A DNA stretch of 64,000 nucleotides from the NCBI GenBank assembly GCA_045546195.1, contig JAZQCH010000001.1, positions 231,489-295,488 on the forward strand, given 5' to 3'. The position numbers were made by a program, and so were the translations under genes. This DNA comes from Candidatus Enterousia sp. (lineage in GTDB: Bacteria; Pseudomonadota; Alphaproteobacteria; Rs-D84). The first letter of the stretch is position 1; each line of letters starts with the position of its first letter. The notes under the pieces are model-generated. The model was not told the DNA's origin. It made no database searches and was given only the letters and a program-made list of their open reading frames with translations. This document shows, piece after piece, positions 3,268 to 64,000 of the stretch.

Positions 3268-3284
3268 AAATCACAGCCCTTTTT

Positions 3285-3312
3285 GTCATTCCCGCGCAGG
3301 CGGGAATAGGGG
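3285..3312 (+). repeat. hairpin repeat copy A (attcccgc-gcag-gcgggaat; 8-bp stem, 4-nt loop)
   Basis: 'gtcattcccgcgcaggcgggaataggg' also at 4130-4158 (+) and 4523-4551 (-); followed by 'cttgaaaa' -35-like box. Confidence 0.8.
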
Positions 3313-3320
3313 CTTGAAAA

Positions 3321-3650
3321 TTACTGTCCTTGTTTGAATCCATCAACAATATATTCAATAATTTTCGCAAGTATAAATGGTGTACAAAAAGCCAATATTA
3401 AATACAAAATAATAAACATATCGCCATCTAAAAAGTCATCCCAATCCGCCATAATGGCCATAATACAACACAGCACAATAGCTACAACTAGGCATAGGCG
3501 ACGAACTCCCGTATTGTTCGGAACCGCAACTAATCTAATCATTTGTAAGATTTTATTGATGTTGTTATGAAAATCATCAATAAACCAAATGATTATACCC
3601 CAAACAATACAAAATAACATAATACCTAAAATTTCTATTAACAGTTCCAT
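3321..3650 (-). CDS. small hydrophobic membrane protein (~109 aa, 2-3 predicted TM)
   Basis: ORF track 3321..3785 trimmed to internal Met 'MELLIEILGIMLFCIVWGIIIWF' whose ATG (3650) lies 4 nt after the stop of the upstream gene; strongly hydrophobic segments; AT-rich codon usage unlike neighbours. Confidence 0.45.
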   Translation of the reverse strand: MELLIEILGIMLFCIVWGIIIWFIDDFHNNINKILQMIRLVAVPNNTGVRRLCLVVAIVLCCIMAIMADWDDFLDGDMFIILYLILAFCTPFILAKIIEYIVDGFKQGQ

Positions 3651-3654
3651 CTTT

Positions 3655-4017
3655 TTATTCCTTTTTGCCGATAATTGCCCAAATGAGTGCGCTGATTGTA
3701 AAGAAAAGCCAGCCACCAAAAATACCACCCAAAGCAGAGAGTTGGTACACTGTATATTTTCTCTTAATATTTCGTTTCCAAGCAATAAACATTGGAGTAT
3801 ATGTCATGATTATTATAATTGGCACAAATATCAAAGAACGGACAAAAGATACTTTAAGGGCAATTTCTTGTGCGCTAGAATAAGCATATTCGGCATTTAA
3901 GGCGGTTTGTCTAATATCGTCATAAGTCATCGCAAATGTAAATATTATACCAATGGTGATTGCCCAAAGAAACATCCTTAATGGAAACTTATTGTTATTA
4001 AGTTGGTTTGTTTCCAT
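3655..4017 (-). CDS. small hydrophobic membrane protein (~120 aa, ~3 predicted TM)
   Basis: ORF track 3655..4134 trimmed to 'METNQLNNNKFPLRMFLWAITIGIIFTF' start preceded by AGGAGAG Shine-Dalgarno (revcomp of 4024-4030); hydrophobic stretches; forms tight operon with 3321..3650. Confidence 0.5.
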   Translation of the reverse strand: METNQLNNNKFPLRMFLWAITIGIIFTFAMTYDDIRQTALNAEYAYSSAQEIALKVSFVRSLIFVPIIIIMTYTPMFIAWKRNIKRKYTVYQLSALGGIFGGWLFFTISALIWAIIGKKE

Positions 4018-4129
4018 AATATTTTCTCTCCTTATACAAAAATAACCGCCATAATTCCCATCGGATTCATGTCTAATTATATCAGGAAAATATACAAATG
4101 TAAAATTGTGTGTATTGGATAAAAACCTT

Positions 4130-4158
4130 GTCATTCCCGCGCAGGCGGGAATAGGGTC
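4130..4158 (+). repeat. hairpin repeat copy B / left terminal inverted repeat of GIY-YIG cassette
   Basis: 'gtcattcccgcgcaggcgggaatagggtc' is the exact reverse complement of 4523-4551. Confidence 0.85.
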
Positions 4159-4187
4159 TTGAAAAAATTTGTGTGCCCTTGTACAAT
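4159..4187 (+). promoter_or_regulatory. sigma70-like promoter (TTGAAA-17 bp-TACAAT) reading into GIY-YIG gene
   Basis: -35 TTGAAA at 4159-4164, 17-bp spacer, -10 TACAAT at 4182-4187; the -35 is part of the repeat-associated 'cttgaaaa' motif also seen at 3313-3320. Confidence 0.5.
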
Positions 4188-4193
4188 TTTGAT

Positions 4194-4523
4194 ATGAAAG
4201 ATTATCACTTCTGGGTTTATATATTGTTTGATGAACGCGCCAAGGGCACTTATATTGGTGTGACGAATAATCTTGAACGGCGTATGTATGAACACAAAAT
4301 GGGATTGGACGACGGTTATACCAAAGAACATAATATTCATAAATTGGGATATTTTGAATACTACAAATATGTTAATAATGCGATTGCGCGTGAAAAACAA
4401 TTAAAGAAATGGAAACGTGCATGGAAATATCGTCTGATTGAAACCATGAATCCAAATTGGCTTGATTTGGCCGACGATTTAGAGAAAAACATAGCGTTTT
4501 GGAAAAACAAAGAAACAGAATAG
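4194..4523 (+). CDS. GIY-YIG nuclease family protein (UPF0213/YhbQ-like, stand-alone)
   Basis: 'HFWVYILFDERAKGTYIGVTNNLERRMYEHK' = GIY...YIG motif pair with the conserved Arg and Glu; ORF track gives 4173 (GTG) but ATG 4194 sits just downstream of the predicted -10; ~109 aa. Confidence 0.8.
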   Translation: MKDYHFWVYILFDERAKGTYIGVTNNLERRMYEHKMGLDDGYTKEHNIHKLGYFEYYKYVNNAIAREKQLKKWKRAWKYRLIETMNPNWLDLADDLEKNIAFWKNKETE

Positions 4524-4551
4524 ACCCTATTCCCGCCTGCGCGGGAATGAC
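4523..4551 (-). repeat. hairpin repeat copy C / right terminal inverted repeat of GIY-YIG cassette
   Basis: 'gaccctattcccgcctgcgcgggaatgac' = reverse complement of copy B; begins at the GIY-YIG stop codon. Confidence 0.85.
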
Positions 4552-4557
4552 AAAATG

Positions 4558-4609
4558 GGGCATGACCCCCGCCGGCATTATGGTGGTGCTGCGAAAGATT
4601 AAATCATAA
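4558..4609 (+). pseudogene. displaced orphan copy of mnmG 3' terminus (encodes ...GMTPAGIMVVLRKIKS*)
   Basis: 52-nt segment 85% identical to 3217-3267, in frame ending with TAA, no upstream ORF body. Confidence 0.75.
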
Positions 4610-4616
4610 AAACATC

Positions 4617-4645
4617 TTGCCAAAATTGGCGGTGTGCGGTATAAT
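4617..4645 (+). promoter_or_regulatory. sigma70-like promoter (TTGCCA-17-TATAAT) for Cys-rich protein gene
   Basis: TTGCCA 4617-4622, 17-bp spacer, TATAAT 4640-4645. Confidence 0.55.
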
Positions 4646-4672
4646 TCCAAGGAAAAATACAGGAAAAACACT

Positions 4673-4702
4673 GCCTAATCCAAAGGGACGATTAGATTAG
4701 GC
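4673..4702. promoter_or_regulatory. 30-nt palindromic element 'gcctaatc-N14-gattaggc' between promoter and start codon
   Basis: perfect 8-bp inverted arms; same 30-mer family (25/30 identical) found twice at 62009-62123 upstream of paralogous gene. Confidence 0.6.
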
Positions 4703-4755
4703 ATAATTTCCAAAAACAATTTCCCAGATTTACGCATGTTTTATCCCCCTTTGTT

Positions 4756-5793
4756 GTGCCTAAAAAAAACGTCGGTTTATTTGCGGTATTTTTGACGGCA
4801 ATAATCGGTGTTCGTGACGCGAACGCATACACCAGTTATATATGTAACGAGATTGGCTCCTGTTCAACTTACTATGTCGCCGGTGGATTCTCCACCACCG
4901 TATCATCCGTGCCAGATGTATATAGTTATGCAGAAGGTTGTGCCCAAGCTGTATGGGTCCGAACCAGTGCCGACTCAACCAGTTCTGGCGGATGCGTGTT
5001 GATTCCAACGTGTCTGTCCTGTGATGACGGGTATGAATTAACAGATAGCGCGTTGCCAATCCTGTTTAACAACAGCAATTCTGCATGTACCAGTGTCAAC
5101 AGTCAATACGACATAAAATACTGTGCCAAAAAATCTGACAGTGGGGACAGCGGCAGTACAACAACCTGCACATCCAGCAATTGTGCATCGTCTGGTTGGT
5201 CGACACACAGTACAGGATACCTGGTGCAAACATTTCGCGAATGTGTAAATGACCAATGTGTTGAAACAGTGCGATATGGTTGTGCCCAGGGTTATTTTGG
5301 ATCAGATGATGGCATAAATCCATATCTAAGTTCGGCATATGGTTGCGTTAAATGTCCGGGCTATTATGTGAGTGGCAACAGCTATGCGACAACAACCAAT
5401 ACCACGCTTGTGCCCACGGTTGCGGGCTGTTATGTTGTGGCAACCGGCGACGAAACAGAATTCTCAGACGGAACAGGAACCTATGTTTTTACCCCGTATT
5501 CCAACGCAACCGAATACTGTTATTATGATTTTGGCAGTTGTACCGGCGTTACACCGGCTTGTGCCACGTCGTCCGGCACAGCATTTGCTGTGGTTTCTGG
5601 CACCAAGGCACACGATGAAACGGGAACTCATTGCTGGTGCAATGTCAATGGCAAAAGTTTCTATTTTTCTTCGCAAAGCACTGCATCTGCTTGTGCAGCA
5701 AACTGTGATGACATGTGTTCAAATGCCGTTTTTGGATTTGGCGCAAATGGCGGTCAACCAATGGTTTCGCTAGACGACCTTGGGTGCTATTAA
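4756..5793 (+). CDS. secreted Cys/Gly/Ser/Thr/Tyr-rich protein, no recognisable domain (paralog P1)
   Basis: 345 aa, GTG start, signal peptide 'MPKKNVGLFAVFLTAIIGVRDANA', >30 Cys, low-complexity S/T/G/Y composition; compositionally similar to 62159..63316 and 30416..32557. Confidence 0.6.
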   Translation: MPKKNVGLFAVFLTAIIGVRDANAYTSYICNEIGSCSTYYVAGGFSTTVSSVPDVYSYAEGCAQAVWVRTSADSTSSGGCVLIPTCLSCDDGYELTDSALPILFNNSNSACTSVNSQYDIKYCAKKSDSGDSGSTTTCTSSNCASSGWSTHSTGYLVQTFRECVNDQCVETVRYGCAQGYFGSDDGINPYLSSAYGCVKCPGYYVSGNSYATTTNTTLVPTVAGCYVVATGDETEFSDGTGTYVFTPYSNATEYCYYDFGSCTGVTPACATSSGTAFAVVSGTKAHDETGTHCWCNVNGKSFYFSSQSTASACAANCDDMCSNAVFGFGANGGQPMVSLDDLGCY

Positions 5794-5851
5794 AATAGAT
5801 AAAAAAACCACTGGAAATTATTCTGGGGATAGATTATAGTCATTTGCGCAC

Positions 5852-5927
5852 GCCGGTGTAGCTCAGCTGGTAGAGCATCTCATTCGTAATGAGGGGGTCG
5901 TAGGTTCAAGTCCTATCACCGGCACCA
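5852..5927 (+). tRNA. tRNA-Thr (anticodon CGU)
   Basis: cloverleaf: acceptor gccggtg/caccggc, D-arm gctcagctggtagagc, anticodon loop ttCGTaa, T-arm ggttcaagtcc, encoded CCA. Confidence 0.85.
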
Positions 5928-5935
5928 CTTATCAA

Positions 5936-5958
5936 TCCCGCCTGCGCGGGATTTTTTA
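5936..5958 (+). terminator. rho-independent terminator after tRNA-Thr
   Basis: 'atcccgcctgcgcgggatttttt' hairpin plus T-run; core is the same cccgc-NNNN-gcggg hairpin as repeats A/B/C. Confidence 0.7.
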
Positions 5959-6013
5959 ATAAAAAACACCCCTGATTTATGGTATAATTACCAAAAATAT
6001 ATGGGGGAATTAC

Positions 6014-7351
6014 ATGATTCAATATAAATTTGGCAAAAGTTATTATATACAAAGCACAGGCAATGTTTTCCATGAACGCGAACTAATCGTTGTTCACGCT
6101 GAATCCAGCCGTGGTCGCCATGCGTACAGTTATGACCAGTCGCGTGGCACCGCCCGTGATTATCAAAACAGGGCCAATGATTTGGGCCTGGCCGAAGAAT
6201 ATATTGCGGAAAAACTGGCCCAGGTATCATTTCGTGCGGACGAAACACCAGTTGCGGCACATGAAAAAATAAGTAAATTTATCGATTCTAAAAATCAGTA
6301 CGCTGAATTTGATGCCTCAATCGCCGCGGATATAAACGCCCGCGAAGATTATCATGTGCGTCTGGAAAACGCCGAATACTATAAACAGGCACTGTTGGCA
6401 TTGACAAAATTTGAACCTGCGGGCGTCCAGGCTATTCTGACTGGCACAAAATATCCATTTTCCATGGCGGCGCATGATTTTGCCCGTGGCATTTCGCATC
6501 GTCAAATTAAACAAGATATTGCCAAATTGTCATCCCCGGTTAAGAAACGCCTGCGTGAATTTGCGGCGCAACGCAATTATATCCTGTCGGACGAAGCATG
6601 TAATACCGAAGCGCGCGACTATATCGACACTGTCAGGCGCAGTTATCCGCTGATTAACCATTCGCCCGAGCGCGTAGAATACATCATCGCCCGTGCGGTT
6701 GATGATATGTTGCGTGATGCGTTGGAATACAAATACTACAAACGCACTGGCAATATGGCGATATTTGTCGGTCCATATGGTCAACGCACCGCAGATTCTT
6801 TATCTGATACAGAATTGCTGGATGTTGTTGGTTGGAACGCGATGCAAAATTATGGCAATGCATTACAGGTCATCCGTCGCATGAATCAAATTATCGCCGC
6901 TGAACGCGACATAACGCCATTTATGACCGAATTGAACAAGACCCTGGGCGACGGCTATGCCAACCAAGAAATAATTCGTATGATGTTTGAAACATTGTCG
7001 CCACACTATAATAAATTCAAGCACAATAAAAAGGTCACAGAATTTATCGGTCGTCTGCGCTTTTATGTCAAAGACGCGCGCCTGGCACAGCACATGGCGG
7101 AAACATTTGGCCTAAAAGAAGCCCCAAAACCAAACAAGGACAAGGCGCGCGCCAAACTGTTGGCCGCCGCCGACCGTATTGTGTCGGGCGACAATGTGTC
7201 GGGTGTTGTCGTTATTGACCGTGAATTACAGTTGGTACGTGATTTTGCGGTCGAACCCACCCCGGAAACATTTGGTCGGATTAAGAAATCTATAAAACCA
7301 ACCGCGGTCCAGGCTGAAATCCTGCGCAAATATGGTCCGCGCCAAAAATAA
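6014..7351 (+). CDS. hypothetical cytoplasmic protein (445 aa), no recognisable domain
   Basis: ORF with extended -10 'tggtataat' and GGGGGAA SD upstream; no signal peptide or TM; adjacent to tRNA-Thr. Confidence 0.55.
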   Translation: MIQYKFGKSYYIQSTGNVFHERELIVVHAESSRGRHAYSYDQSRGTARDYQNRANDLGLAEEYIAEKLAQVSFRADETPVAAHEKISKFIDSKNQYAEFDASIAADINAREDYHVRLENAEYYKQALLALTKFEPAGVQAILTGTKYPFSMAAHDFARGISHRQIKQDIAKLSSPVKKRLREFAAQRNYILSDEACNTEARDYIDTVRRSYPLINHSPERVEYIIARAVDDMLRDALEYKYYKRTGNMAIFVGPYGQRTADSLSDTELLDVVGWNAMQNYGNALQVIRRMNQIIAAERDITPFMTELNKTLGDGYANQEIIRMMFETLSPHYNKFKHNKKVTEFIGRLRFYVKDARLAQHMAETFGLKEAPKPNKDKARAKLLAAADRIVSGDNVSGVVVIDRELQLVRDFAVEPTPETFGRIKKSIKPTAVQAEILRKYGPRQK

Positions 7352-7541
7352 AAGACATCCCGCCAACCGGCGTTATTTTTTGTTATCTGGACTTGCAATT
7401 TGTATAAATCCATTGTAATCTGTGTTGCGATGAAACAAACAACAATAATTATTATTAAATAAAACGGCAACTGCGCTTCTGCGGTGGCTGGGGCGCATAC
7501 GCGCCTTTTTTTAATATAAAAACGAAACAGGACTAAAAAAC

Positions 7542-27636: not shown

Positions 27637-28233
27637 TTAAACCCCACACATCAGCGCGGCCTGGCTGTTTTTCAGCACCAACCACCCCGTCCGAAAATCT
27701 GTTATATAAAGCGTCACAATAAACAACGCTAAAATCCCAATAACCAATATAACATTTGCGCGTTTCCCCCGCAGACAATACAGTGAAATATTATAGAACA
27801 AGAACAACACATACGCGTCAATCAAAATACTGATAATCCACAGGGATGCGCAATTAAACGCCAACGAACTTAAAACCAACATCGCTGGATACACAAAGAA
27901 TACCGACGCCAATCCCTTGGTTGCGATTTCCCAATCGCGTTCCCCGCCGGTGATTTCGGCGACCATCATCAACAATCCGCCAAACACAAACAACAATGTC
28001 ACCGCCAACACAGGTACAATAATGATTGCGTTAAACACGGCCCCCAGTGTCAGTTCTGCTTTCCCAATCAGGCCGATTAACAACACCAAGCACCCGCCCA
28101 ACAACCCATACAGGTATGCCTTTAACATTGATTCTTCCATGTTGCCGTCTGCGACAATTTTTGTGAAATAGCGTTTTGGGTTAATAATCAGATTGCGAAC
28201 GCGTTTAAATGCGTTTTTAAATTTTTTCTTCAT
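27637..28233 (-). CDS. Yip1-family integral membrane protein
   Basis: 198 aa, 5 hydrophobic helices, Yip1-like topology; weak call. Confidence 0.45.
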   Translation of the reverse strand: MKKKFKNAFKRVRNLIINPKRYFTKIVADGNMEESMLKAYLYGLLGGCLVLLIGLIGKAELTLGAVFNAIIIVPVLAVTLLFVFGGLLMMVAEITGGERDWEIATKGLASVFFVYPAMLVLSSLAFNCASLWIISILIDAYVLFLFYNISLYCLRGKRANVILVIGILALFIVTLYITDFRTGWLVLKNSQAALMCGV

Positions 28234-29668: not shown

Positions 29669-30217
29669 TTAAAAACTGTAATTTATACCCAGTCCCAGAA
29701 AATTAAATCCGCGGTTCAGGTTTGTAAAATCGCCGTTTGAAAAGTGCTGGGTCAATATTTCTGCGCGTACGCGTTCGCCAATGTTTTTGCCGATGAACAC
29801 TCGTTCCCCGAATACCAGTCTGCTTTCCACATATTCATCCCCGCTGTCGCGCATGTACGGGCCGATTCCTGCGCCAATGTACCATCCACAAATTGATGCG
29901 AATACAACATCCCACGAAACGCCAATTGCGCCAAATGACGCGCCGTCATTGTGTCTGTATGCGAAATTTTGCAGCGCGTGAATATTCACGCGCCCTGGCA
30001 AACGCAGCAAGTTAATCGGCTGGCTGTATTGAATCATTGTGATTGTCATAGGATTTATTTCCCAATCCCACGGCCACACCAAATGCCCCAGGTCGCCGTG
30101 TCCAGTGCTTTGTGCTGCGTATATTCCAATGCTGTTGCGGGTTTCGTCCCCAAACATTGGGTTTGCGTTTATTGTCCAGGGCATCATAAACAAACAGAAA
30201 ATCATAATGCGCTTCAT
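29669..30217 (-). CDS. PagL-like lipid A deacylase / acyloxyacyl-hydrolase family outer-membrane protein
   Basis: 182 aa, signal peptide, C-terminal OMP signature ...GINYSF, 'HFSNG' His/Ser motif as in PagL. Confidence 0.5.
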   Translation of the reverse strand: MKRIMIFCLFMMPWTINANPMFGDETRNSIGIYAAQSTGHGDLGHLVWPWDWEINPMTITMIQYSQPINLLRLPGRVNIHALQNFAYRHNDGASFGAIGVSWDVVFASICGWYIGAGIGPYMRDSGDEYVESRLVFGERVFIGKNIGERVRAEILTQHFSNGDFTNLNRGFNFLGLGINYSF

Positions 30218-30415
30218 ATGGAAAATTATACCGTGTATTTGTCGTCGAATCTATTTGATAAAAATCTTAAAATAACGCCTTTTGTGCGCGACTAAACTAT
30301 TTACAGACCTAAAAAAAATTGATATAATCAAGATAAACATACATGCGTCATGCATGGTGTTTGTGTATAGAAAGGTTGGGTTTCTGGGCGTTCCAGAACA
30401 CAAGGAGAGTTTTTT

Positions 30416-32557
30416 ATGAAAAGTCAAAAAGTTGCGAATTCTGTCAAAAATGCGATAAGCACGGTCTTTTTGTTGGCTGGGGCGTTTTTTGTATGTTCGA
30501 CAATGTTATCAATTCGTGCGGTGTTTGCTGATCCGATTGCGCCGGTTGATTCTGTGGCGACGGCAAACGCATCGCGTGCGTCTGGCAATGCGCGAAATGC
30601 GCGCGCCAATCCGCGTGCCACGGCAAATGCTTCGCGCACATCTGGTAATGCGTCGCGTTCAACCGTGTCGCGCAGTACGGTCCAATCCCGTGCCGTCACA
30701 TCGCGTGCGAATGCTGCGCGTGCGAACGGTGCCACATCGCGTAATGTTGTGTCCCGTACAACGGCGGCGACATCGCGTGCCAATGCCAATCGTGTTCGCA
30801 CGGTTCGCGCCCGTACCGCCACAACCGATGCGGCGAACAATGCCCGCATCTCGTTACAGGGCAGTGCGATACGCGGGTCCAAGGCTTCTGCGACCACCCC
30901 AACATATTCTTATTTGACCAGCAAACTGTACACCGGCAACTATTCGAACATTATTGATTCCACAACTGGTTTGATTTCGGCTGACGCGTTCAGCAACTGT
31001 ATGGAATCATACTATACCTGTATGGACGAAATTTGTACCGCGCGTAATTCGGCCCAGCGTCGTTGTGCCTGTGCCGGCCGTGTCAAGGCATTTGCCGAGG
31101 CTGAAACCGCCCTGGAAACCGCAAACGAAGAATTGATTAAGGTATCTGGTGAATTGGCATTGTTAATCGCGAACAAGGGCAAAGATGTATCCGATGCGTT
31201 CCTGTTAACCGACGCTGAAAAGGTTATGAACTGTGTTTCCTGGCAGGATACGACCAACAAATATGGCCAAAGTTCCGAAGAAGCAATCGAATGGTGTTAT
31301 AACCACGGTATATACGGTGAAAATGGCGGCAAGGTGTCGACCTGTACAATGCCTTCTTACTGTTCGTCAACCGGGGATGGTGCAAACTCATTTGGATTTG
31401 ATGTCGATGCCCTGGACGGCAGTGGTTCCGACATCCTGGCATCACTTCAGGCGTGGGCCGATGCCAAGGAACAGACCATAACAATTCTGGACGACGATAA
31501 TGACGGCCTGTTGGCGTCATACAATAATCTGTCTGCGGCGGTCAGCGGTCTGGGCGGATTTGCCGGCGCGTTGGATTCGGCCGACGATTTAAAAGATTCC
31601 CTGGCGGAAACATGGGGGTATGAATTGTTCGAATATGCCCACAATAATGTATGTTCACGCGTTTTGGATTCCTGTTTTAACGGCATTTACGAAGCGTGCG
31701 GCACCCCACCATCTGGCACAAAATGTTCAAATGGCGCGGGCCAGTGTCCATATAATTACAACAGCCAGATTTCCGTGAACAATTCCGGCACATATGAATT
31801 GAACTTTGTCAAGGCGAACAGTGGTTATTCCGCATCGAATACCGCATCTTGCTTTGGTTATACATCAACATCGGGCGACCCGTATTCAAATCTGCGTGGC
31901 CCGGTTGCGGACGCGCGCCGCAGCATTATGCAAAAATATGCCCTGGACGCGAACGCCGACTGTGACGCCTATGGTGAACAGTTGCGCACCACCGCCCAGA
32001 ATATCGGTTATCAAAAGGTTGCCGCCCAACAGGCCCTGCAGCAAAAGCGTCTGGAATTCGCAACCGAAGAAACAGAAACAATCTTGTCGCGTGCGATTCA
32101 GGCTGGCACAAACTTTGATGCCTGTATCAGTGAACTGTACGAATGTTACGACGCGCAACTGGACGCGCACGGCCCTGGCAAAAACAGTGTCTGGACGGTA
32201 TCGCGTATCCGCACATATTGTTCCCAGGTTGCGAACGTCCCATCGTGCTACGAAGAAATGGTATGTAATCCATCAACATCCCAGTTCAAGGCTGTTATTG
32301 ACAAGGCGGACAGCACAACCTGTGCCAACACCCAGGATTACACAACGAACACATGTCGCAACATTGTGACATTGAACGAAATCCTGAACGGTACCGGCGC
32401 GGACGCGGCGTCCGACCCACGCACCAGCACCGATTCCGCGGCAATCCGCGAACAGTGTATGCAGGATGCGATTGGTATGGATGATGGTGATGTGGCTGTT
32501 CGTACCTGGCTGGAAACCGAGTGGAATAATATGAAAGGTGATAACACCCCCAAATAA
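30416..32557 (+). CDS. secreted Cys-rich protein with N-terminal Ala/Ser/Arg/Asn-rich tandem repeats (paralog P2)
   Basis: 713 aa; AAGGAGAG SD; TM/signal anchor 'ISTVFLLAGAFFVCSTMLSI'; residues ~50-150 are degenerate 'ANASR(A/T)SGNA' repeats; remainder Cys-rich with no recognisable domain. Confidence 0.6.
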   Translation: MKSQKVANSVKNAISTVFLLAGAFFVCSTMLSIRAVFADPIAPVDSVATANASRASGNARNARANPRATANASRTSGNASRSTVSRSTVQSRAVTSRANAARANGATSRNVVSRTTAATSRANANRVRTVRARTATTDAANNARISLQGSAIRGSKASATTPTYSYLTSKLYTGNYSNIIDSTTGLISADAFSNCMESYYTCMDEICTARNSAQRRCACAGRVKAFAEAETALETANEELIKVSGELALLIANKGKDVSDAFLLTDAEKVMNCVSWQDTTNKYGQSSEEAIEWCYNHGIYGENGGKVSTCTMPSYCSSTGDGANSFGFDVDALDGSGSDILASLQAWADAKEQTITILDDDNDGLLASYNNLSAAVSGLGGFAGALDSADDLKDSLAETWGYELFEYAHNNVCSRVLDSCFNGIYEACGTPPSGTKCSNGAGQCPYNYNSQISVNNSGTYELNFVKANSGYSASNTASCFGYTSTSGDPYSNLRGPVADARRSIMQKYALDANADCDAYGEQLRTTAQNIGYQKVAAQQALQQKRLEFATEETETILSRAIQAGTNFDACISELYECYDAQLDAHGPGKNSVWTVSRIRTYCSQVANVPSCYEEMVCNPSTSQFKAVIDKADSTTCANTQDYTTNTCRNIVTLNEILNGTGADAASDPRTSTDSAAIREQCMQDAIGMDDGDVAVRTWLETEWNNMKGDNTPK

Positions 32558-32727: not shown

Positions 32728-33087
32728 GTGTCAAGTATGAGTAATATGTTGGAACTTTCGCCAGAACTGCGTGAAATTGTCCGTCTGTCCATTGACAGTG
32801 GCTGGGTGTCTGTATATGTTGATCCCGATGGTGAATTTCATGAATATACGATTTTGGTTGGTGGATCGACGCTTTATCTGCGTCGTACCTATATTGACCA
32901 TGGTATTGAGTATATGATTGAATTTAACGACCGTGTTATCGCGCGCGTTGACATTTCTTCTGGTGCCAAGGCACGCACTGTTTCCGAATCAGAAATTTTA
33001 CAATTGTTCAATCTGTGTTCGGCGCGCATCATCGCCCAAGAAATGCGCACACGAATCCTGGACAGCAATCAAAAACAGTTTTCCTAG
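32728..33087 (+). CDS. hypothetical protein (119 aa)
   Basis: ORF only; GTG 32728 or ATG 32737 start; TTGACA box 32702-32707. Confidence 0.35.
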   Translation: MSSMSNMLELSPELREIVRLSIDSGWVSVYVDPDGEFHEYTILVGGSTLYLRRTYIDHGIEYMIEFNDRVIARVDISSGAKARTVSESEILQLFNLCSARIIAQEMRTRILDSNQKQFS

Positions 33088-33806
33088 ATTGCGCGCACAA
33101 CGCGACAAAATGTCACACCATAAACGGCCGCTGCGCCTGCCGCGATTAACACGCGACGCATTTCTGAAAATGTTGCGCCACTGGTCATAACATCGTCAAC
33201 CAATAAAATCTTCTTGCCGCGGATTCTGTCCGGTCGCACCACAGAAAACACGCCGCGAATATTTTCTGCGCGTTCACGCGCGTTCTTGTGTCCCATGTCG
33301 TCACGATATTTACGACGCACTGAATCTAAATCCATTTTAATCCCATACGCACGCGCGATTGGTCGCGCCAACAGGGTTGCCTGGTTATATCCGCGCTTGA
33401 ACAACCGTCGTGTTGCCAATGGTATGGGCAAAATAACATCCGCGTCCAAGTTAATATCGCGCAACGCCCAAATCATTGCGCGTGCCATAAATCCCGCGTA
33501 TTTAATTTTGCCGGCATGCTTGAACGGCAACATTGCCGCCCTGGATGCGTTGTCATATACACATGCCGAACGAATCCAATCTAATTCTGACTTGCCTGCG
33601 GCGCAAACTGGGCACAATGGCGTCCCGCCTAAATCTAAATCTGCGGGAAACGGATATCCGCACCGTGCGCATTTTGGATTTTCAATCCAGTTTATTTCTG
33701 TCCAACATGTGGCGCACAGTTCACCATGTGTTGACACCGGCGTATCACATAATGGACACGCCGGCGGAAACAGAAACTCTAATATTTTATTTATGAAATT
33801 TACCAC
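33084..33806 (-). CDS. ComF-family protein (double zinc ribbon + phosphoribosyltransferase domain)
   Basis: 240 aa; N-terminal 'CPLCDTP...CATCW...CARCGYPF...CPVC' and C-terminal PRTase 'ILLVDDVMTSGATF'. Confidence 0.7.
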   Translation of the reverse strand: MVNFINKILEFLFPPACPLCDTPVSTHGELCATCWTEINWIENPKCARCGYPFPADLDLGGTPLCPVCAAGKSELDWIRSACVYDNASRAAMLPFKHAGKIKYAGFMARAMIWALRDINLDADVILPIPLATRRLFKRGYNQATLLARPIARAYGIKMDLDSVRRKYRDDMGHKNARERAENIRGVFSVVRPDRIRGKKILLVDDVMTSGATFSEMRRVLIAAGAAAVYGVTFCRVVRAI

Positions 33807-35062
33807 GACATACTTTTATATGTTTTGCTGCCAACTGTATCGCCGAATATGTCGCGCTTTTGTTGTGTCAGTGTTTCGTATTGGTCGCTGGAAATAATGC
33901 GCAGAACGAATCCAGATTCATCACGATTGGACAAAACCGGCACAATTCGTTGCTGGGAAACACCGTTATCGGTCAGCACCTGTTCCACGATGGCCAATCT
34001 GCGTGCCGCCAACTTGCGTCCGTCTTTGGTTTTGGTCATGTGTTCTGGGATGGCCAACTGAATTGCGCGCGTTGGCTTGCTAACTACGATGCCGGCGTAT
34101 TCGGTCAACAGGTTATAGTTTTCGCGTGACAGTGCCGAATCTTCGTTGCGGAATTTGATTTTGATTTCCAGTGGTCGAATGCCACCACCTTCGGAAATAT
34201 CACGTTGTGCGGTAAATCCTTCGATTGACGATGACATATCACTGGCTACATCAAAACTGTCATCAATCGCATATGTTGACAGGTGTTTATTTTCAGACAG
34301 AAATGTTTTTCTGAACGCCTGGCGCAACTGTGCCGGTGTCATTTTTGTCATATCGTCGCGCACGGCAACAATTCGTGGCGAAGTATTTTTTTCAACGCTG
34401 CGTACAACCACATCATCTGTCATTGGCACGACCATACGACGCAGTGATACATTTTCTGTCTCGGCCTTTTTAGTGGCGGTTGCGACACGCACAGGCTCTT
34501 CTGTTTTTGTTTCTGTGATTGGCGCAGCGATAACGCGTGGTGAAACATATCGTACGCTTTCTTCGGCGCGCTTTTGTAATTCGGTTAATCGTGCGATTTG
34601 ATTATCGATTTCAGACAGTGGTGACGCTGTGCTGATGTTTTCAGTTTTTTGTGTTGCGATTGCGACCTTTTTGTCCAGGCTTTCTTCTGGCAACAAAGAA
34701 TCAGAACGAATCACAGAAAACTCACTTGCGCTTGGCATGCGTAATGCGAAATTGTCCGCCACCACCGGTGCGGTATTTTTTGCCCACAAATCATCACTGG
34801 GGCGACGCGGCGCCAACACATCATTGGATGCCAGCATTTGTTCGCCCATATCCACCGGCGCAGATTTTTTTGCGCTGCGCGCGACAACGGTTTTTGTGCG
34901 TGTTGCTGTGGGGGTGACCTTAGCCTTTTTTTCAATACCTTCGCCAAATGCGTTTCGTGCGGAAACCGCGCCCGACGCGATGTTCACGACCGGCAACCGT
35001 GCGGATGCAACCGTTGGCAGTATAACAAACATAGACAATACACTGATTGTAAAACGACGCAT
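33800..35062 (-). CDS. secreted hypothetical protein (~420 aa)
   Basis: start trimmed to 'MRRFTISVLSMFVILPTVASA' signal peptide with GAAGGGA SD; Thr/Lys/Ala-rich middle; C-terminal ~100 aa loosely OmpA/MotB-like. Confidence 0.45.
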   Translation of the reverse strand: MRRFTISVLSMFVILPTVASARLPVVNIASGAVSARNAFGEGIEKKAKVTPTATRTKTVVARSAKKSAPVDMGEQMLASNDVLAPRRPSDDLWAKNTAPVVADNFALRMPSASEFSVIRSDSLLPEESLDKKVAIATQKTENISTASPLSEIDNQIARLTELQKRAEESVRYVSPRVIAAPITETKTEEPVRVATATKKAETENVSLRRMVVPMTDDVVVRSVEKNTSPRIVAVRDDMTKMTPAQLRQAFRKTFLSENKHLSTYAIDDSFDVASDMSSSIEGFTAQRDISEGGGIRPLEIKIKFRNEDSALSRENYNLLTEYAGIVVSKPTRAIQLAIPEHMTKTKDGRKLAARRLAIVEQVLTDNGVSQQRIVPVLSNRDESGFVLRIISSDQYETLTQQKRDIFGDTVGSKTYKSMSW

Positions 35063-35204
35063 GATGTTCTTCCCTTCGTCACAATCATAGAACAAATGCC
35101 GAATCGCACGCAAGTGGAAAATATTGTTTTGACGACAATACCTTGCATAAAAATAAATGATTGTTATAATTCGCACTGAATAACGAAACAAAGGGTAAAT
35201 TTAT

Positions 35205-41584: not shown

Positions 41585-41609
41585 AAAACCGCCATTTGGC
41601 GGTTCTTTT
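41585..41609 (+). terminator. bidirectional rho-independent terminator
   Basis: 'aaaaccgccatttggcggttctttt'. Confidence 0.65.
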
Positions 41610-42273
41610 ATTTTTGCCGACAACAAAACACAGTTCCTAATTCATTTTGTAATTTATCCTGTTCGCGTTCGAAATCAATCTGTTCGCGTGTTTTAATTTT
41701 GTTGCGAATTAAAAAAGAATCTTGTTCGTCGATATATCTGCGTTGTTCATCGCGACAAAATGCGGCGATTTCACGACCGCGTGCGGTATTAAAGAATTCC
41801 GGCCTGTATTCATATTCCCACGATAAACGGATTCTGTCTGCGTCCCATAAACATGCGGATATTCCATCTGGCGCGACGCGTCCAATTGTGTGGTTTCCCA
41901 CAGCGTACAATATTTGTCGGATTGTAGATTCTGACAGGTTTTTATAGTTTTTTGCTAAAAAATCCCGTCCCACCAGAACCGCCCGCGGACCGTGTTCTGT
42001 ACACCATGCGTCGTTTGTACGCGCGCAATCATGTAACCCCGCCGCCAGCATCACCGGCAACGCATCCTGATTGATACTGTGTGCCAAATCGATACCGAAT
42101 AATGCGACTTGGTTTGTATGGCTTAACCCATGATAGCCGAACCTGGATTGTGTTGTGATTTCTGCGATTTGCGGTAAAATTTGATTAAAATACATTTGAC
42201 AATAATACGCTTTGTTATATTTCATAGTACCCTTCCATAATTTTTTGCCGAACCAATGTGGCATATAAAACAA
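41608..42273 (-). CDS. HD-domain phosphohydrolase
   Basis: 221 aa; 'HGLSH...' and 'GLHDCAR' HD metal-binding motifs. Confidence 0.6.
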   Translation of the reverse strand: MFYMPHWFGKKLWKGTMKYNKAYYCQMYFNQILPQIAEITTQSRFGYHGLSHTNQVALFGIDLAHSINQDALPVMLAAGLHDCARTNDAWCTEHGPRAVLVGRDFLAKNYKNLSESTIRQILYAVGNHTIGRVAPDGISACLWDADRIRLSWEYEYRPEFFNTARGREIAAFCRDEQRRYIDEQDSFLIRNKIKTREQIDFEREQDKLQNELGTVFCCRQK

Positions 42274-42851: not shown

Positions 42852-44175
42852 ATACAAATCAATATCGATGGTCGCATGTTTATGCGCCGGCATTTGTTTT
42901 TCGCCGGCGTATTCTTTGGATTTGTCATTAAAAGATGCGGTTGCGAAAATCGAACATGAATCCCATGATTTGAAAAAGGCCCAGGCCAATGTATCCAAGG
43001 CCGAAGCATCCCTGGATGCGGCCAATGCCAACCGTTGGTTTTCGATTGACGGTACTGCGTCATACATGAATATGGTGAACGTTGAAAATCCGTCTGAGTC
43101 TATGGGGATTGAATTGCCACCTGAAATGGGCGGTCTGTTGTCTGAATCGTTAAAGGACCAGTCTGTATTCATCGAAATTCCAGATAATATTTTCCAGGCG
43201 GGTCTGACATTTACCCAGCCTATTTATACATTTGGTAAAATCGGCAACGCGGTCAAGTCGGTAAAATCTGCGATTAAAATGGCACAATCGTCCCAGGAAT
43301 TAACGCGTCGTGAAGTTCGCTATGCGGCAACCGACCTGTATTGGACGGCGAAAATGACTGATGAAATGGTGCTTTTGTCTGAAACAGATTTGAAAAACGC
43401 GCGCACCGCAAAAAGCAAACTGACATCTGCCGGTCGTGCCAATCGCAGCAACCTGTTAAAAATTGAATCAGACATTATTTCCAAAGAAGTAAATCTGGCC
43501 CAGGTAAAATTCAATCGTGACACCGCCCATCGTATGTTGAAAATTATGGCGGGCATTGATGTGAACGAAGAATTGGTTTTAACAGACAGTTTCCCATCTG
43601 AATTTGCCGCATTGAACGCGGGCGAATTAAAGTCAACGCCCCAGTGGGAAATTCTGGACGAACAGGTGAACATGTACGAACGCGCCGCGCGTTCAAAACG
43701 TGCGAACAATTATCCGACATTGGCGGCGACTGCGTCGTACACTTATTCGTCAATGGCGGGCGATATCGGCCACCTGTTTGATAAAAAGGGCAGTCAGTCT
43801 GCGTCCTGGGGGCTGGCATTACAGATGCCGATTTTCAACGGTGGGTTAAATCGCGCCAACGCAACGGTCGAAGCAATGAATGCCGAAGCGGCACGCGAAG
43901 ACCTGGCCCAGGCCAAGAAAATCACAACCGAAGAATATAACAACGCAATCAATCGCTATGACATGTTGCGCGACAATTTATCATCTTTGATTGATGCGCG
44001 TGATTTGGCGGCAAAAACATATGATTTGTCGCAAAAGCGTTTTGCCGCGGGTCAAACGTCTGCGGTTGAATTGGCGGATGTGTCGGCGGGTTTGTATTCG
44101 TTGGATATGTCGGTATTACAAATGAAGTACAATCTTTTAATGTCTGCGGAAACGGTAAAAAAGTTAGGTGAATAA
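42844..44175 (+). CDS. TolC-family outer membrane efflux protein
   Basis: 443 aa, signal peptide, two OEP repeats. Confidence 0.8.
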   Translation: MHKYKSISMVACLCAGICFSPAYSLDLSLKDAVAKIEHESHDLKKAQANVSKAEASLDAANANRWFSIDGTASYMNMVNVENPSESMGIELPPEMGGLLSESLKDQSVFIEIPDNIFQAGLTFTQPIYTFGKIGNAVKSVKSAIKMAQSSQELTRREVRYAATDLYWTAKMTDEMVLLSETDLKNARTAKSKLTSAGRANRSNLLKIESDIISKEVNLAQVKFNRDTAHRMLKIMAGIDVNEELVLTDSFPSEFAALNAGELKSTPQWEILDEQVNMYERAARSKRANNYPTLAATASYTYSSMAGDIGHLFDKKGSQSASWGLALQMPIFNGGLNRANATVEAMNAEAAREDLAQAKKITTEEYNNAINRYDMLRDNLSSLIDARDLAAKTYDLSQKRFAAGQTSAVELADVSAGLYSLDMSVLQMKYNLLMSAETVKKLGE

Positions 44176-44776
44176 AATGGAAAAAATACAAAGAACGATG
44201 GCGACTAAAAAGTTCAAAAAAATCGCCTATATCACATTGGTTGCGGTATTGGCGGGATGGGTGATATTCCGTTTTGCGGCGGTTGCGTCTGAAAATGCGC
44301 GTTTTGTGTTTAATACTGCGCGCGTGGCGGCGGACGCTGGTGCGCCGGTTATGGCGATGGAAATGTCAAACAAGTCCGGCACATTGTATGAACCGTTGTC
44401 AATCAAGAATAATCGCGCATATGTGTCTGCGGAACGTGCGAAAAAATTGCGTGCGGGTGCGCGTGTTGGCGATGGTAAAATCGTATCTGTGTCGTCAAAT
44501 ATTGATTATGACACCGGCATGTATGTTGTTCGTACATCTGGTGTATCGGATGGATTACAGATGGCTGAATTTACCGCGCGTGGATTTTTTGTGCCGTTGT
44601 ATGCGATTACAGATGGTACTGTATTCGTCGCCCAAGACGGCGTTGCTGTATCACGCGATGTTAACATTGTGCGCCAGGATTCTGAAAACGCATACATCAC
44701 ATCTGGTCTGCGCGATGGTGACATTGTAATTTTGTCATCGGTTCGTGCCGGCGACAAAGTTCAAATTAAAAAATAG
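44168..44776 (+). CDS. short periplasmic adaptor subunit (HlyD/RND MFP-like, 202 aa)
   Basis: N-terminal TM anchor, beta-barrel-like C-terminus; lacks the long alpha-hairpin of canonical adaptors; overlaps tolC-like stop and precedes acrB-like gene. Confidence 0.55.
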   Translation: MNKMEKIQRTMATKKFKKIAYITLVAVLAGWVIFRFAAVASENARFVFNTARVAADAGAPVMAMEMSNKSGTLYEPLSIKNNRAYVSAERAKKLRAGARVGDGKIVSVSSNIDYDTGMYVVRTSGVSDGLQMAEFTARGFFVPLYAITDGTVFVAQDGVAVSRDVNIVRQDSENAYITSGLRDGDIVILSSVRAGDKVQIKK

Positions 44777-57813: not shown

Positions 57814-57907
57814 AAAAATTCTCTCTCGTGTTAATATTCTTTCAAATTATACAATTTTTCTATTGAATTACAATTTTTTTTTGCTTAATATGCTTTCACA
57901 AAGTTCA

Positions 57908-57981
57908 GGCCTGGTGGCAGAGTGGTTATGCAGAGGACTGCAAATCCTTGGATGCCGGTTCGATTCCGACCCAGGCCTCCA
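57908..57981 (+). tRNA. tRNA-Cys (anticodon GCA)
   Basis: acceptor ggcctgg/ccaggcc, anticodon loop ctGCAaa, T-arm ggttcgattcc, encoded CCA. Confidence 0.85.
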
Positions 57982-57985
57982 CAAA

Positions 57986-58013
57986 TAAAAAAGAGCCCCT
58001 GGGGGGCTTTTTT
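57986..58013 (+). terminator. rho-independent terminator after tRNA-Cys
   Basis: 'aaaaagagcccctggggggctttttt'. Confidence 0.7.
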
Positions 58014-58156
58014 GGTGCCTGGGGTGGAATTGAACCGGCCCGGTTCGCATGCGCGCCCAGGTTTGTCGCGGGGCATAACAAACCCGCCACGCGACAAACC
58101 ACCGCAAGCAGTGAGTCAAGTTGCGTTTAGCAACGGTCGCCAACGGCGATGCGAAC

Positions 58157-58186
58157 ATTCCGACCCAGGCCTCCACAAATAAAAAA
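58157..58186 (+). repeat. 30-bp direct repeat of tRNA-Cys 3' end (second copy)
   Basis: 'attccgacccaggcctccacaaataaaaaa' identical to 57963-57992; followed by its own terminator 'caccccatgtgggtgatttttt'. Confidence 0.8.
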
Positions 58187-58237
58187 ACACCCCATGTGGG
58201 TGATTTTTTATGTAAGTTTAAGGAAGGGAATATATTC

Positions 58238-62158: not shown

Positions 62159-63316
62159 ATGCATATTTTTGGCCAAGATATCGATATGTACAACCTGTTA
62201 CGTCGGGTTCGCCGTGTCGGGTTGCGTACTGCGGGTATGGTTGTTGCCCTGTTTGCGTCAAACCGTGCGTCGGCGGTGGCGATTACGGACGTCTGCCCCA
62301 GTTGCCGAATTGTCGGCAATTCAATTTGTAATATGGCAGCCAATCCACAGAGTGTAAATGAAAGTGGCGCGGTCGGCACCTGGGTTAATTGGTGTATACC
62401 ACAGCAGAATTTGGGAACAACTACGTATCCGTTGATAATTGATTCCAGCTGTGTGACGAAATTAAAGAATTGGGGCTTGTGTACAACCTATCCAAATGGG
62501 TGTGGATACATGTTGTATAACCCAAACCTGTCGTGTTCCAGTGGTAATGTGAACTATTCCGGTGTATATACTGTGTTTGCGCAAAATGGTATGACGACCG
62601 TGGGCAGTATGACATTGCCATGGACTTCGGTTGCGGGCTATCAATCTTCCAGCGGTCTGATTGTGGCGTTTCAAAACGGTGACATCAATGAAACGGCATG
62701 TTGTATGATTTCTGACACATCTGTCAACTATATCAGCGGTATTTGTATGATTACATCTGGCACAGATGAAAATTGCGCGATAATGGCGGCATGCGGATAT
62801 GTCCCAAATTCATACACATGCGGTTATATGGGGATTAGCAAGACTGGCACCATATCTGGTTCAAACGCATGTCCATCTGATTTTGAATCCTATTTCCGTA
62901 CCAGTCTGTCAACCGGCTGGTGTGATAATTATGGTTCTGGCATCTATGTCGAAGGGCTGGGTGCTATGCTGATTAGCAAGGCCTGTAATGGCACCCTGGA
63001 TACGACATATTGTAATGGCAGATTTTCAAGATGTACATGTGGTTTTGTACTTGATTCATGTAACACGGCATCTGGCTATGAACGTACTGGAAAAACCAAC
63101 GACCCGATTACATACATTGGTGCCGATGGTTATTGTCAGTGTACCAGTGATTCTGCGTCCGTGTTAAATCATGTTTCTGGCGTTACATATTCTGGCTATT
63201 ATTCCAGCGGTCTGTCCAAATGCGTCGCAACCCCCAGCCCCAGCACGGTATCTGGCCTGAGTGACACAACTGGTTCTTATACTGTTTTGTATGATGGGGA
63301 TTGCGAATGGGAATAA
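62159..63316 (+). CDS. secreted Cys/Gly/Ser/Thr/Tyr-rich protein, no recognisable domain (paralog P3)
   Basis: 385 aa; GGGGAGA SD; signal-like 'VGLRTAGMVVALFASNRASAVA'; ~35 Cys; composition like 4756..5793. Confidence 0.6.
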   Translation: MHIFGQDIDMYNLLRRVRRVGLRTAGMVVALFASNRASAVAITDVCPSCRIVGNSICNMAANPQSVNESGAVGTWVNWCIPQQNLGTTTYPLIIDSSCVTKLKNWGLCTTYPNGCGYMLYNPNLSCSSGNVNYSGVYTVFAQNGMTTVGSMTLPWTSVAGYQSSSGLIVAFQNGDINETACCMISDTSVNYISGICMITSGTDENCAIMAACGYVPNSYTCGYMGISKTGTISGSNACPSDFESYFRTSLSTGWCDNYGSGIYVEGLGAMLISKACNGTLDTTYCNGRFSRCTCGFVLDSCNTASGYERTGKTNDPITYIGADGYCQCTSDSASVLNHVSGVTYSGYYSSGLSKCVATPSPSTVSGLSDTTGSYTVLYDGDCEWE

Positions 63317-63327
63317 ACAGGTGAATA

Positions 63328-64000
63328 ATGAAAAAACAGCAACCGCAAATCAGTGTAATTGAAATAGATATTCGTGATGCGAATTACCAGACCGGTATCG
63401 GACGATATATTGATATCGTATCGCGTAATATGCCAGACTATGTTCATACATATCGCATAATTTTATATCGTACAGATGTCGAAGAATTACATATCACCAA
63501 AACCGATACAGAATTGTCTGTGTATTTACCAAAAAATTTCCCGCACAACATACTCAGTGGCATAATTCTTCAAATCTGGGGACAAAAAATTTCCCAGATG
63601 CCCAATTTGATTGTCAAGGTCAACTGTGTCGGTGCAGAATCTCTGGCATACACTATCCGCAATCAGTTCTATTGTAAAACCATCGGCGTCTTACATTTTT
63701 CGCCCCAGTGGATTCTGGACGGCAAACCGAAACGCGCCTATAATCCGTACTTTAACATGGACTATGTGATATCAGTATTCGCGGGCGGTCTGAACTATCT
63801 GCGCGAAATCGGTTATAATCGTGCGCACAGTGTTATTTTGAACGGTATTGAACCGCCACGGATTGGGGCGCGCCCGCGCGATGATGTTTTTCGCTTTATA
63901 TTCCCGAACGGCTGGACACCACGCAAAGGCCTGGTCAAGATTTTGCCTGCGTTTAAAAAGGTTGCTGAAAAACATAAAATCGAAGTTTTAATCCTAGGTG
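63328..64000 (+). CDS. putative family-1 glycosyltransferase, N-terminal part (runs off window end)
   Basis: open frame from ATG 63328 to window end with no stop; shape matches the N-terminal domain of GT4 enzymes; 'KVNCVGAESL..IGVLHFS' region; weak. Confidence 0.4.
   Translation, partial: MKKQQPQISVIEIDIRDANYQTGIGRYIDIVSRNMPDYVHTYRIILYRTDVEELHITKTDTELSVYLPKNFPHNILSGIILQIWGQKISQMPNLIVKVNCVGAESLAYTIRNQFYCKTIGVLHFSPQWILDGKPKRAYNPYFNMDYVISVFAGGLNYLREIGYNRAHSVILNGIEPPRIGARPRDDVFRFIFPNGWTPRKGLVKILPAFKKVAEKHKIEVLILG

Follow-up and report, generated by a model that had tools for sequence, protein, structure and literature searches.

The window studied here, a stretch of 64,000 nucleotides from Candidatus Enterousia sp., carries three open reading frames which a first-pass annotation had grouped together as secreted, cysteine-rich proteins and which are referred to below as gene A, gene B and gene C. 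The features needed for their description are as follows.

4617..4645, plus strand: sigma-70-like promoter candidate, TTGCCA-17-TATAAT, which agrees with the consensus at 11 of 12 positions and lies some 110 nt upstream of gene A
4756..5793, plus strand: gene A, a Cys-rich open reading frame with a predicted signal followed by N-module, Mid and C-module, as delineated by module HMMs
4756..4827, plus strand: predicted signal peptide of A, residues 1-24, MPKKNVGLFAVFLTAIIGVRDANA, with a putative signal peptidase I site after A-N-A
4828..5136, plus strand: N-module of A, residues 25-127, 6-8 Cys and a CxxC-x-GYEL motif (HMM E = 8e-41)
5161..5529, plus strand: Mid module of A, residues 136-258, ten conserved Cys (HMM E = 6e-57)
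5530..5790, plus strand: C-module of A, residues 259-345, 8 conserved Cys (HMM E = 1e-44)
5852..5927, plus strand: tRNA-Thr(CGT) directly downstream of A; a terminator-like hairpin comes next (5934-5953)
29669..30217, minus strand: PagL-like lipid A deacylase gene adjoining B (Pfam PagL, 5e-11)
30416..32557, plus strand: gene B, consisting of a signal or anchor, a variable linker and a conserved, predicted alpha-helical domain containing Cys
62159..63316, plus strand: gene C, Cys-rich, representing a separate orphan family
63068..63310, plus strand: possible diverged second half of Mid in C (residues 304-384), a weak hhalign match
63328..64000, plus strand: start of a family-1/4 glycosyltransferase gene, recognised from its translation, which leaves the window; its adjacency to C is conserved

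The coordinates and lengths of the three genes (345 aa with a GTG start for A, 713 aa for B and 385 aa for C) agree with the first-pass annotation, while its count of about 30-40 Cys per protein was too high, as each of them contains exactly 25. Relative to a mean of 1.28% over 50 non-overlapping ORFs of the window, the Cys content is raised to 7.2% in A (binomial P = 7e-12), 6.5% in C (P = 7e-11) and 3.5% in B (P = 9e-6). The sum of Gly, Ser, Thr, Tyr and Asn, typically about 26%, amounts to 46.7% in A, 46.2% in C and 37.9% in B. On both measures A and C are clear outliers and B is only intermediate. A signal-like N-terminus can be read in each sequence, as had been proposed, and that of B might be either a signal peptide or an anchor. 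The absence of recognisable domains was likewise confirmed: Pfam, NCBIfam and PHROGs gave no significant match for A, B or C, and neither Pfam nor NCBIfam detected a C-terminal beta-barrel translocator of the type Va autotransporter kind in any of them. PDB sequence searches with profiles of the A orthologs, the A family and the B family were equally without match. A and C can be described as predicted exported, Cys-rich and lineage-specific proteins that are domain-less by current libraries.

Relatives of A were located in metagenome-assembled genomes labelled Alphaproteobacteria (roe deer gut) and Candidatus Enterousia sp., and the housekeeping proteins flanking A are 81-97% identical to those of genomes holding such relatives; pyruvate kinase shares 81% identity with its counterpart in Ca. 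Enterousia excrementavium. Candidatus Enterousia is an anaerobe of the order Rs-D84 with a genome of ~0.75-1.0 Mb, which lacks the TCA cycle, respiration and respiratory chains, is thought to depend on a partner and is presumed to be an obligate symbiont or parasite (PMC12306168). The window itself encodes a Gram-negative (diderm) envelope, as indicated by LptD, LpxD, PagL, two TolC-like proteins, HlyD and AcrB.

The first-pass annotation had further interpreted A, B and C as three paralogs of one expanded family, for which we found no support. Pairwise BLASTP among the three proteins gave E values of 0.05 or higher, and when the families of A and C were compared by hhalign, the probability was 2.9% and only the signal peptides were aligned. 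When the A-family HMM and the three module HMMs were run with filters off on all stop-to-stop ORFs of the window of at least 50 aa, the sole ORF matched was A, which the Mid-module HMM detects with E = 6e-57 (HMM based on orthologs) or 5e-22 (HMM built from 92 instances). The same Mid HMM gave no HMMER match to C at E <= 1 or at E <= 10 and none to B, for which the hhalign probability was at most 0.9%. Moreover, the homolog sets of A, B and C differ sharply. A word-index search retrieved seven homologs of A with identities of 36-97%, whereas B has more than 1198 homologs, the best 120 of which all match over their full length with identities of 65-99%, and C has two, 99% and 36% identical, to which a metagenome scan added no further relatives. 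Expansion thus applies to A, with its 87 family representatives and multi-copy relatives, and not to the window, in which a single member is detectable; it is genome-wide and dispersed.

It might be argued that A, B and C are diverged paralogs whose similarity has been erased by fast evolution. Such a view could appeal to their common style, with a signal and 25 Cys in each protein and a Gly/Ser/Thr/Tyr/Asn-rich composition in A and C, and to a faint hhalign match between residues 304-384 of C and the second half of Mid. The probability of the latter (20.6%, P = 1e-3) lies below any accepted threshold, even though four of four Cys are aligned, and we take a kinship of C to the Mid family, suggested by this sequence match, as a lead rather than a finding. 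A common origin of all three appears improbable to us given the non-significant BLASTP, HMMER and hhalign comparisons. It is also at odds with the predicted secondary structures, beta hairpins in A (pLDDT 43) and all-alpha with long helices in B (pLDDT 51), both of low confidence, and with the conservation of B at 65-85% together with its own paralog family of the same linker-plus-helical layout.

In B, a hydrophobic stretch of 20 residues is followed by RAVFA and, behind the possible cleavage point, DP; the subsequent linker (residues ~40-165) is variable and rich in Arg, Ser, Thr, Ala and Asn. The adjacency of B to the PagL-like gene recurs in the related genomes L013, L014 and L019. B is a conserved, envelope-associated, predicted helical protein which is unrelated to A and C and under purifying selection. 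The N-terminus of C shows a long Arg-rich n-region and a hydrophobic core and runs through RRVGLRTAGMVVALFASNRASA to a predicted cut in front of Val, the AxA cleavage site being conserved in the ortholog. C contains 20 invariant Cys and is only 36% identical to its syntenic ortholog in L012, as opposed to 79% for the adjacent glycosyltransferase, where the gene following the C ortholog matches Pfam Glycos_transf_1. C is accordingly a real, fast-evolving protein, conserved in place and probably exported as judged from its N-terminus, that is Cys-rich in the same general style as A but evolves separately.

A comparable discrepancy between gene and neighbourhood is found for A. The gene order fabD-fabG-mnmG-A-ileS is conserved in L007, where A lies directly between mnmG and ileS, and in the same relatives A is 34-49% identical compared with 81-97% for FabD, FabG, MnmG and IleRS. 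Among the A orthologs (34-97% identity) 23 of the 25 Cys are nevertheless invariant. Nei-Gojobori estimates between near-identical strains, which rest on small counts of 8-33 substitutions per gene, gave dN/dS values of 0.90 for A (6 nonsynonymous and 2 synonymous changes, plus a 4-codon indel), 0.30 for C (5 and 5) and 0.08 for B (7 and 26). Small as the counts are, they rank the genes consistently, with A and C changing rapidly around a constant cysteine framework and B subject to ordinary purifying selection. Instead of diversifying selection, the loops may have experienced relaxed constraint, which could likewise account for the fast divergence. That the ORFs are chance reading frames or decaying pseudogenes, for which the GTG start of A and the lack of an obvious Shine-Dalgarno sequence might speak, is effectively refuted by conservation, namely by intact full-length syntenic orthologs in several species with invariant Cys frameworks, by the very large number of B homologs and by dN/dS values below 1 for B and C.

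The N-terminus of A, MPKKN-VGLFAVFLTAIIGV-RDANA followed by Tyr, has readable n, h and c regions, and Ala24, the last residue before the predicted cut, is invariant among orthologs. Of 92 family members, 14 carry the starting motif MP[NK]x[NKI][VG]GL, which within the window is confined to A; some relatives starting with MPNxNVGL have no clear hydrophobic core. A type IV pilin or pseudopilin was considered and rejected, as MPKKNVG is followed by LFAVFLTAIIGVRDANA with no Glu at +5 and with a signal peptidase I-type A-x-A site instead. The C-terminus (...SLDDLGCY) lacks a hydrophobic stretch, and neither a surface anchor nor a route across the outer membrane was identified for A. The mature protein would retain an odd number of Cys (25), among which there are only two CxxC motifs (C86/C89 and C197/C200) as well as CxC and Cx3Cx3C spacings. 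Internal repeats were not detected by hhalign self-comparison. The AlphaFold2 model based on 8 sequences is unreliable (pLDDT 43), and a Foldseek search of the PDB with it produced no match at E <= 1e-3.

The promoter candidate upstream of A is a consensus match only; shuffled sequence is expected to contain as many such sites as the region does. Hairpin stability in the 5' UTR does not exceed that of shuffled sequence (z = -0.97), and Rfam finds two tRNAs and nothing else. Compared with L007, the window contains in the surroundings of A an additional 159-aa membrane ORF, a GIY-YIG gene, the tRNA-Thr gene and a 445-aa ORF. The 159-aa ORF, located 600 bp upstream of A, matches a PHROG annotated as 'immunity to superinfection'. 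One A ortholog adjoins PilO, T2SSE and T2SSF; a link to pili was dismissed, since other orthologs and the window show no such arrangement, and the 445-aa ORF following A has no similarity to PilO.

An exhaustive profile search with the A orthologs (E <= 1e-3, representatives being clusters at 50% identity) revealed 87 representatives of the A family. About a dozen of them are full-length relative to A; most comprise 160-250 aa with a predicted N-terminal signal, match the middle part of A only and end in Mid. For a census of modules A was split into N, Mid and C parts and the resulting HMMs were re-run on 93 family sequences, which gave the following architectures.

N-Mid-C: 12 sequences
N-Mid: 7 sequences
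Mid-C: 3 sequences
Mid alone, after a variable head: 66 sequences
Mid repeated 2-3 times: 3 sequences
C-module alone or doubled: 2 sequences

Mid is thus present in all but two of the sequences (91/93), at times in 2-3 copies, the N-module in 19/93 and the C-module in 17, with repetition in the member P0198. Ten Cys columns of Mid are conserved at 50% or above within the motif W..GY..RT.R.C...C..T.Y.C..GYYG...GC..CP...C(Y)...D..G.Y...C(YY), in which W, GY, Y-x-C-A-x-GYYG, G-C-x2-C-P and D-x3-G are conserved besides Cys; the protein usually ends with ...CYYSN. The C-module, characterised by SGT.CWCN.NGKSF...C...C...C......LGC at or beside the C-terminus, has exactly 8 Cys in 15 of its 17 instances. 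Pfam recognised nothing in the consensus sequences of Mid, N- and C-module even at E <= 10 and no family common to the 82 members searched, and a literature search found no description of the Mid-module family.

Genomes of about 1 Mb contain the family in several copies. Two cluster members are encoded on a single contig of 1,056,449 bp, and a metagenome scan with the Mid alignment detected 52 loci, four on one 278-kb contig and two each on several others. Re-scanning of the fetched loci with the module HMMs raised the number to at least 6 Mid genes on the 278-kb contig (ERZ777306.17) and showed many 20-kb stretches with 2-3 Mid genes, some as adjacent pairs or tandems. Family genes mostly stand alone between housekeeping genes. 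By cluster name, several of the Mid loci can be assigned to Ca. Enterousia species or to Alphaproteobacteria with contigs of about 0.85-1.06 Mb. A is, in conclusion, a member of a multi-copy, unannotated family that occurs in Candidatus Enterousia and in related alphaproteobacteria of the gut with genomes of about 1 Mb. The family is defined by Mid, a module of ~100 residues that contains ten conserved Cys and to which variable heads are attached.

In a few relatives the heads correspond to known domains. In P0206 a colipase domain (residues 15-74; Pfam 4.9e-16 and 4.7e-6) precedes Mid and aligns with porcine colipase at E = 3.6e-19 and ~59% identity over 63 residues. The protein has an MPNPNVGL start similar to A and is encoded on a bacterial contig of 10 kb with housekeeping neighbours. 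P0202 and P0174 carry a saposin-B region directly before Mid, and in P0198 Ephrin_rec_like repeats occur together with two or three C-modules. Colipase, saposin B and Ephrin_rec_like are domains of eukaryotic type that are extracellular and rich in disulfides, and two of them act at lipid surfaces. The presence of such heads suggests that Mid serves as a common scaffold or carrier and that specificity is conferred by the heads. The likeness to vertebrate colipase (PF01114/PF02740; PDB 1ETH chain B) is confined to the head of P0206 that is fused to Mid. A itself has no colipase domain and carries the uncharacterised N-module as its head, so that the colipase link illustrates which heads the family may possess and not what A does.

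Among known systems, the Ephrin_rec_like/GCC2_GCC3 family (PF07699) and related TNFR- or furin-like cysteine-rich domains are among the closest to Mid. Its second half contains, by eye, a similar succession of C-x2-G-Y-Y-G, G-C-x2-C-P and C, and like these modules Mid would be rich in beta hairpins according to the model, extracellular according to the predicted signal, and modular. True Ephrin_rec_like repeats even stand beside C-modules in P0198. However, nothing in Ephrin_rec_like corresponds to the first half of Mid (C..W...GY..RT.R.C) or to the CWCN-type C-module, and Pfam reports no PF07699 match in A (E <= 1), in the module consensuses (E <= 10) or in 81 of 82 members, P0198 alone being matched. 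With Pfam membership failing in this way, the resemblance noted by eye does not amount to demonstrated homology.

In general character, the A family calls to mind the variant-specific surface proteins (VSPs) of Giardia and the high-cysteine membrane proteins of gut protists. By analogy, both would represent multi-copy, Cys-rich, Gly/Ser/Thr-rich extracellular families of an anaerobic gut dweller, diversifying rapidly on a fixed Cys scaffold with a presumed resistance to proteases. As eukaryotic type I membrane proteins, VSPs contain numerous CXXC motifs and possess a transmembrane helix at the C-terminus together with a CRGKA tail. A, in contrast, has just two CxxC motifs and neither the helix nor the tail, and no sequence similarity to VSPs was detected. 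With autotransporter passengers and classical Gram-negative adhesins A shares an N-terminal signal, low-complexity Gly/Ser/Thr-rich sequence and a presumed role at the surface, but at 345 aa it has no C-terminal beta-barrel, beta-helix repeats or Pfam adhesin domain and ends in a Cys-rich C-module; autotransporter passengers are typically Cys-poor. Searches of Pfam and NCBIfam revealed no clear homology of A to a characterised family such as an autotransporter passenger. The family is new and of a known general kind, that of multi-copy, fast-evolving, cysteine-framed and, as the signals predict, extracellular proteins of host-associated microbes.

On this basis we tentatively propose, as a reading with nearly even prospects, that A and its family are protease-resistant, probably disulfide-stabilised extracellular proteins which bind ligands of the host or of a partner organism. 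A would be exported via Sec and cleaved after Ala24, and the mature protein might fold into three small, compact, cysteine-framed modules rich in beta hairpins. The conserved, even-numbered Cys sets would form intradomain disulfides or possibly metal clusters, yielding a compact scaffold that resists gut proteases and leaves the loops between the Cys free to evolve fast, presumably under diversifying pressure. The site of action is expected outside the cytoplasm, either at the cell surface or, after release, in the gut lumen, and the ligands could be surfaces, membranes or lipids of the host or partner. What is directly apparent from the data is the membership of A in the family, the modularity and multi-copy state of the latter, the conserved synteny and the fast divergence around a fixed Cys framework; from these we infer export and cleavage, disulfide formation, extracellular location and ligand binding. 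A role in interaction with the host, as previously suggested, or with a partner appears plausible for A in view of the reduced genome of the organism and its presumed lifestyle as symbiont or parasite.

Two alternative functions deserve attention. The family might consist of secreted antagonists related in kind to bacteriocins or toxins and aimed at competitors or at the partner cell, with the heads as warheads and Mid for delivery or receptor binding. The size of 160-250 aa, the export signal, the many paralogs, head swapping and rapid divergence would all suit such proteins, the folds of the saposin- and colipase-like heads act on membranes or lipids, and the ORF with the 'immunity to superinfection' match in the vicinity of A could be read in the same sense. 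We nevertheless judge this function unlikely, because a conserved adjacent immunity gene is missing, members are solitary among housekeeping genes, with A directly between mnmG and ileS in L007, and no toxin domain appeared in any library searched.

The second alternative concerns the chemistry of the cysteines, which may serve as ligands for metals (Zn, Fe or Fe-S) rather than pair as disulfides, making the family periplasmic or surface proteins for metal binding or redox buffering in an anaerobe. The CxxC, CxC and Cx3Cx3C spacings and the odd Cys count of mature A are in line with this idea. Giardia VSPs, the closest compositional analog, are reported to bind Zn and Fe. Without respiratory chains (PMC12306168), quinone-dependent oxidation of the DsbB type may also be missing, which renders disulfide formation in this organism uncertain. 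Conversely, the number of conserved Cys is even in Mid (10) and in the C-module (8), which fits paired intradomain disulfides, the conserved columns comprise G, Y, W, P, D and T without His/Asp/Glu ligands co-conserved with Cys, and Mid is fused to colipase and saposin heads, whose folds are classical examples of disulfide stabilisation. We regard metal binding by the cysteines as a serious alternative of low probability.

The ligand-binding proposal for A and its family bears on a group of bacteria, Rs-D84/Enterousia, that is widespread in animal and human guts with genomes below ~1 Mb. As so small a genome nevertheless devotes several genes to a single fast-evolving family of predicted exported proteins, its products are prime candidates for molecules of partner or host contact. 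Neither Pfam nor NCBIfam contains the Mid-module family, whose three modules can be addressed specifically by metaproteomics, structure determination and binding assays; the relatives with colipase and saposin heads suggest a testable link to host lipids. More speculatively, and with a rather low likelihood in our estimation, Enterousia and its relatives would possess a modular exported proteome in which Mid, as a lineage-specific Cys-knot carrier, presents heads that can be exchanged, some of them captured from the vertebrate host (colipase, saposin B and ephrin-receptor-like repeats), and in which the N- and C-modules of A would be further ligand-binding heads under diversifying selection. 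If host capture were true, a biosynthesis-poor bacterium could in this manner attach to, or exploit, host lipid digestion or the membranes of its partner.

The conserved N-terminus MP[NK]x[NKI][VG]GL, exemplified by MPNLNVGL and MPKKNVGL, is common to distant members of the family of exported Cys-rich proteins to which A belongs (14 of 92 family proteins). In the window it was found only at the start of A, whose gene is embedded in a small variable island between mnmG and ileS (window 3268-7541) with the following features:

3655-4134, minus strand, 159-aa membrane ORF with a match to PHROG 'immunity to superinfection' (4e-6)
4173-4523, GIY-YIG gene
4756-4779, MP[NK]x[NKI][VG]GL start of A
5852-5927, tRNA-Thr
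6014-7351, 445-aa ORF without Pfam match

Since the family members P0206, P0205 and P0154 lack a clear hydrophobic core after this start, the motif may not be just the n-region of a typical signal peptide. The related locus L007 displays the plain order mnmG-A-ileS without the extra genes of the island. In one related genome (L001/L005 11548-16195) the ortholog of A is located directly upstream of a type IVb-pilus-like PilO / 225-aa / T2SSE / T2SSF cluster, an arrangement seen neither in the window nor in the other relatives.

The two further Cys-rich proteins of the window, B and C, have no detectable relationship to A. Each of A (345 aa), B (713 aa) and C (385 aa) contains exactly 25 Cys, which is most likely a coincidence. 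For B, the related loci provide a paralog:

L013 9277-11457 (also L014), B paralog of 727 aa with 33 Cys

The L013 paralog shares with B the layout of signal, Ser/Thr/Arg/Ala-rich linker and helical domain, the latter beginning CQEQYNDCMDQFC...RCSC in the paralog; B is therefore a member of its own small paralog family. A PagL-like lipid A deacylase gene adjoins B in all genomes examined (window 29669-32557, L013, L014 and L019), albeit in varying relative orientation, and this constant neighbour hints at an outer-membrane-related role of B. The next gene downstream of C encodes a family-1/4 glycosyltransferase both in the window (62159-64000) and in the ortholog locus L012. Given the high Ser and Thr content of C, glycosylation of this protein is conceivable.

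Several further window ORFs (119-463 aa) gave no Pfam match:

27637-28233, minus strand
32728-33087, plus strand
33800-35191, minus strand
41608-42273, minus strand
44168-44776, plus strand

A probably spurious minus-strand ORF, 57868-58584, overlaps tRNA-Cys (57908-57981).

The modules preceding Mid, the core module of A's family, include a saposin-B region immediately before it in P0202 (residues 149-178) and P0174 (residues 72-101). P0198 carries Ephrin_rec_like repeats (residues 313-373) alongside repeated CWCN-type C-modules. In P0206 a vertebrate-type colipase domain (Pfam Colipase, 4.9e-16) is fused to Mid; over 63 residues this domain shares about 59% identity with its porcine counterpart, colipase (E = 3.6e-19). 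The P0206 gene is surrounded by bacterial housekeeping genes:

L020 8001-8723, P0206 gene (NCBI MAG GCA_014802705.1, contig JAAVBR010000071.1)

The family of A shuffles eukaryote-like Cys-rich heads, and the colipase domain of P0206 looks like a host domain captured by a gut bacterium.
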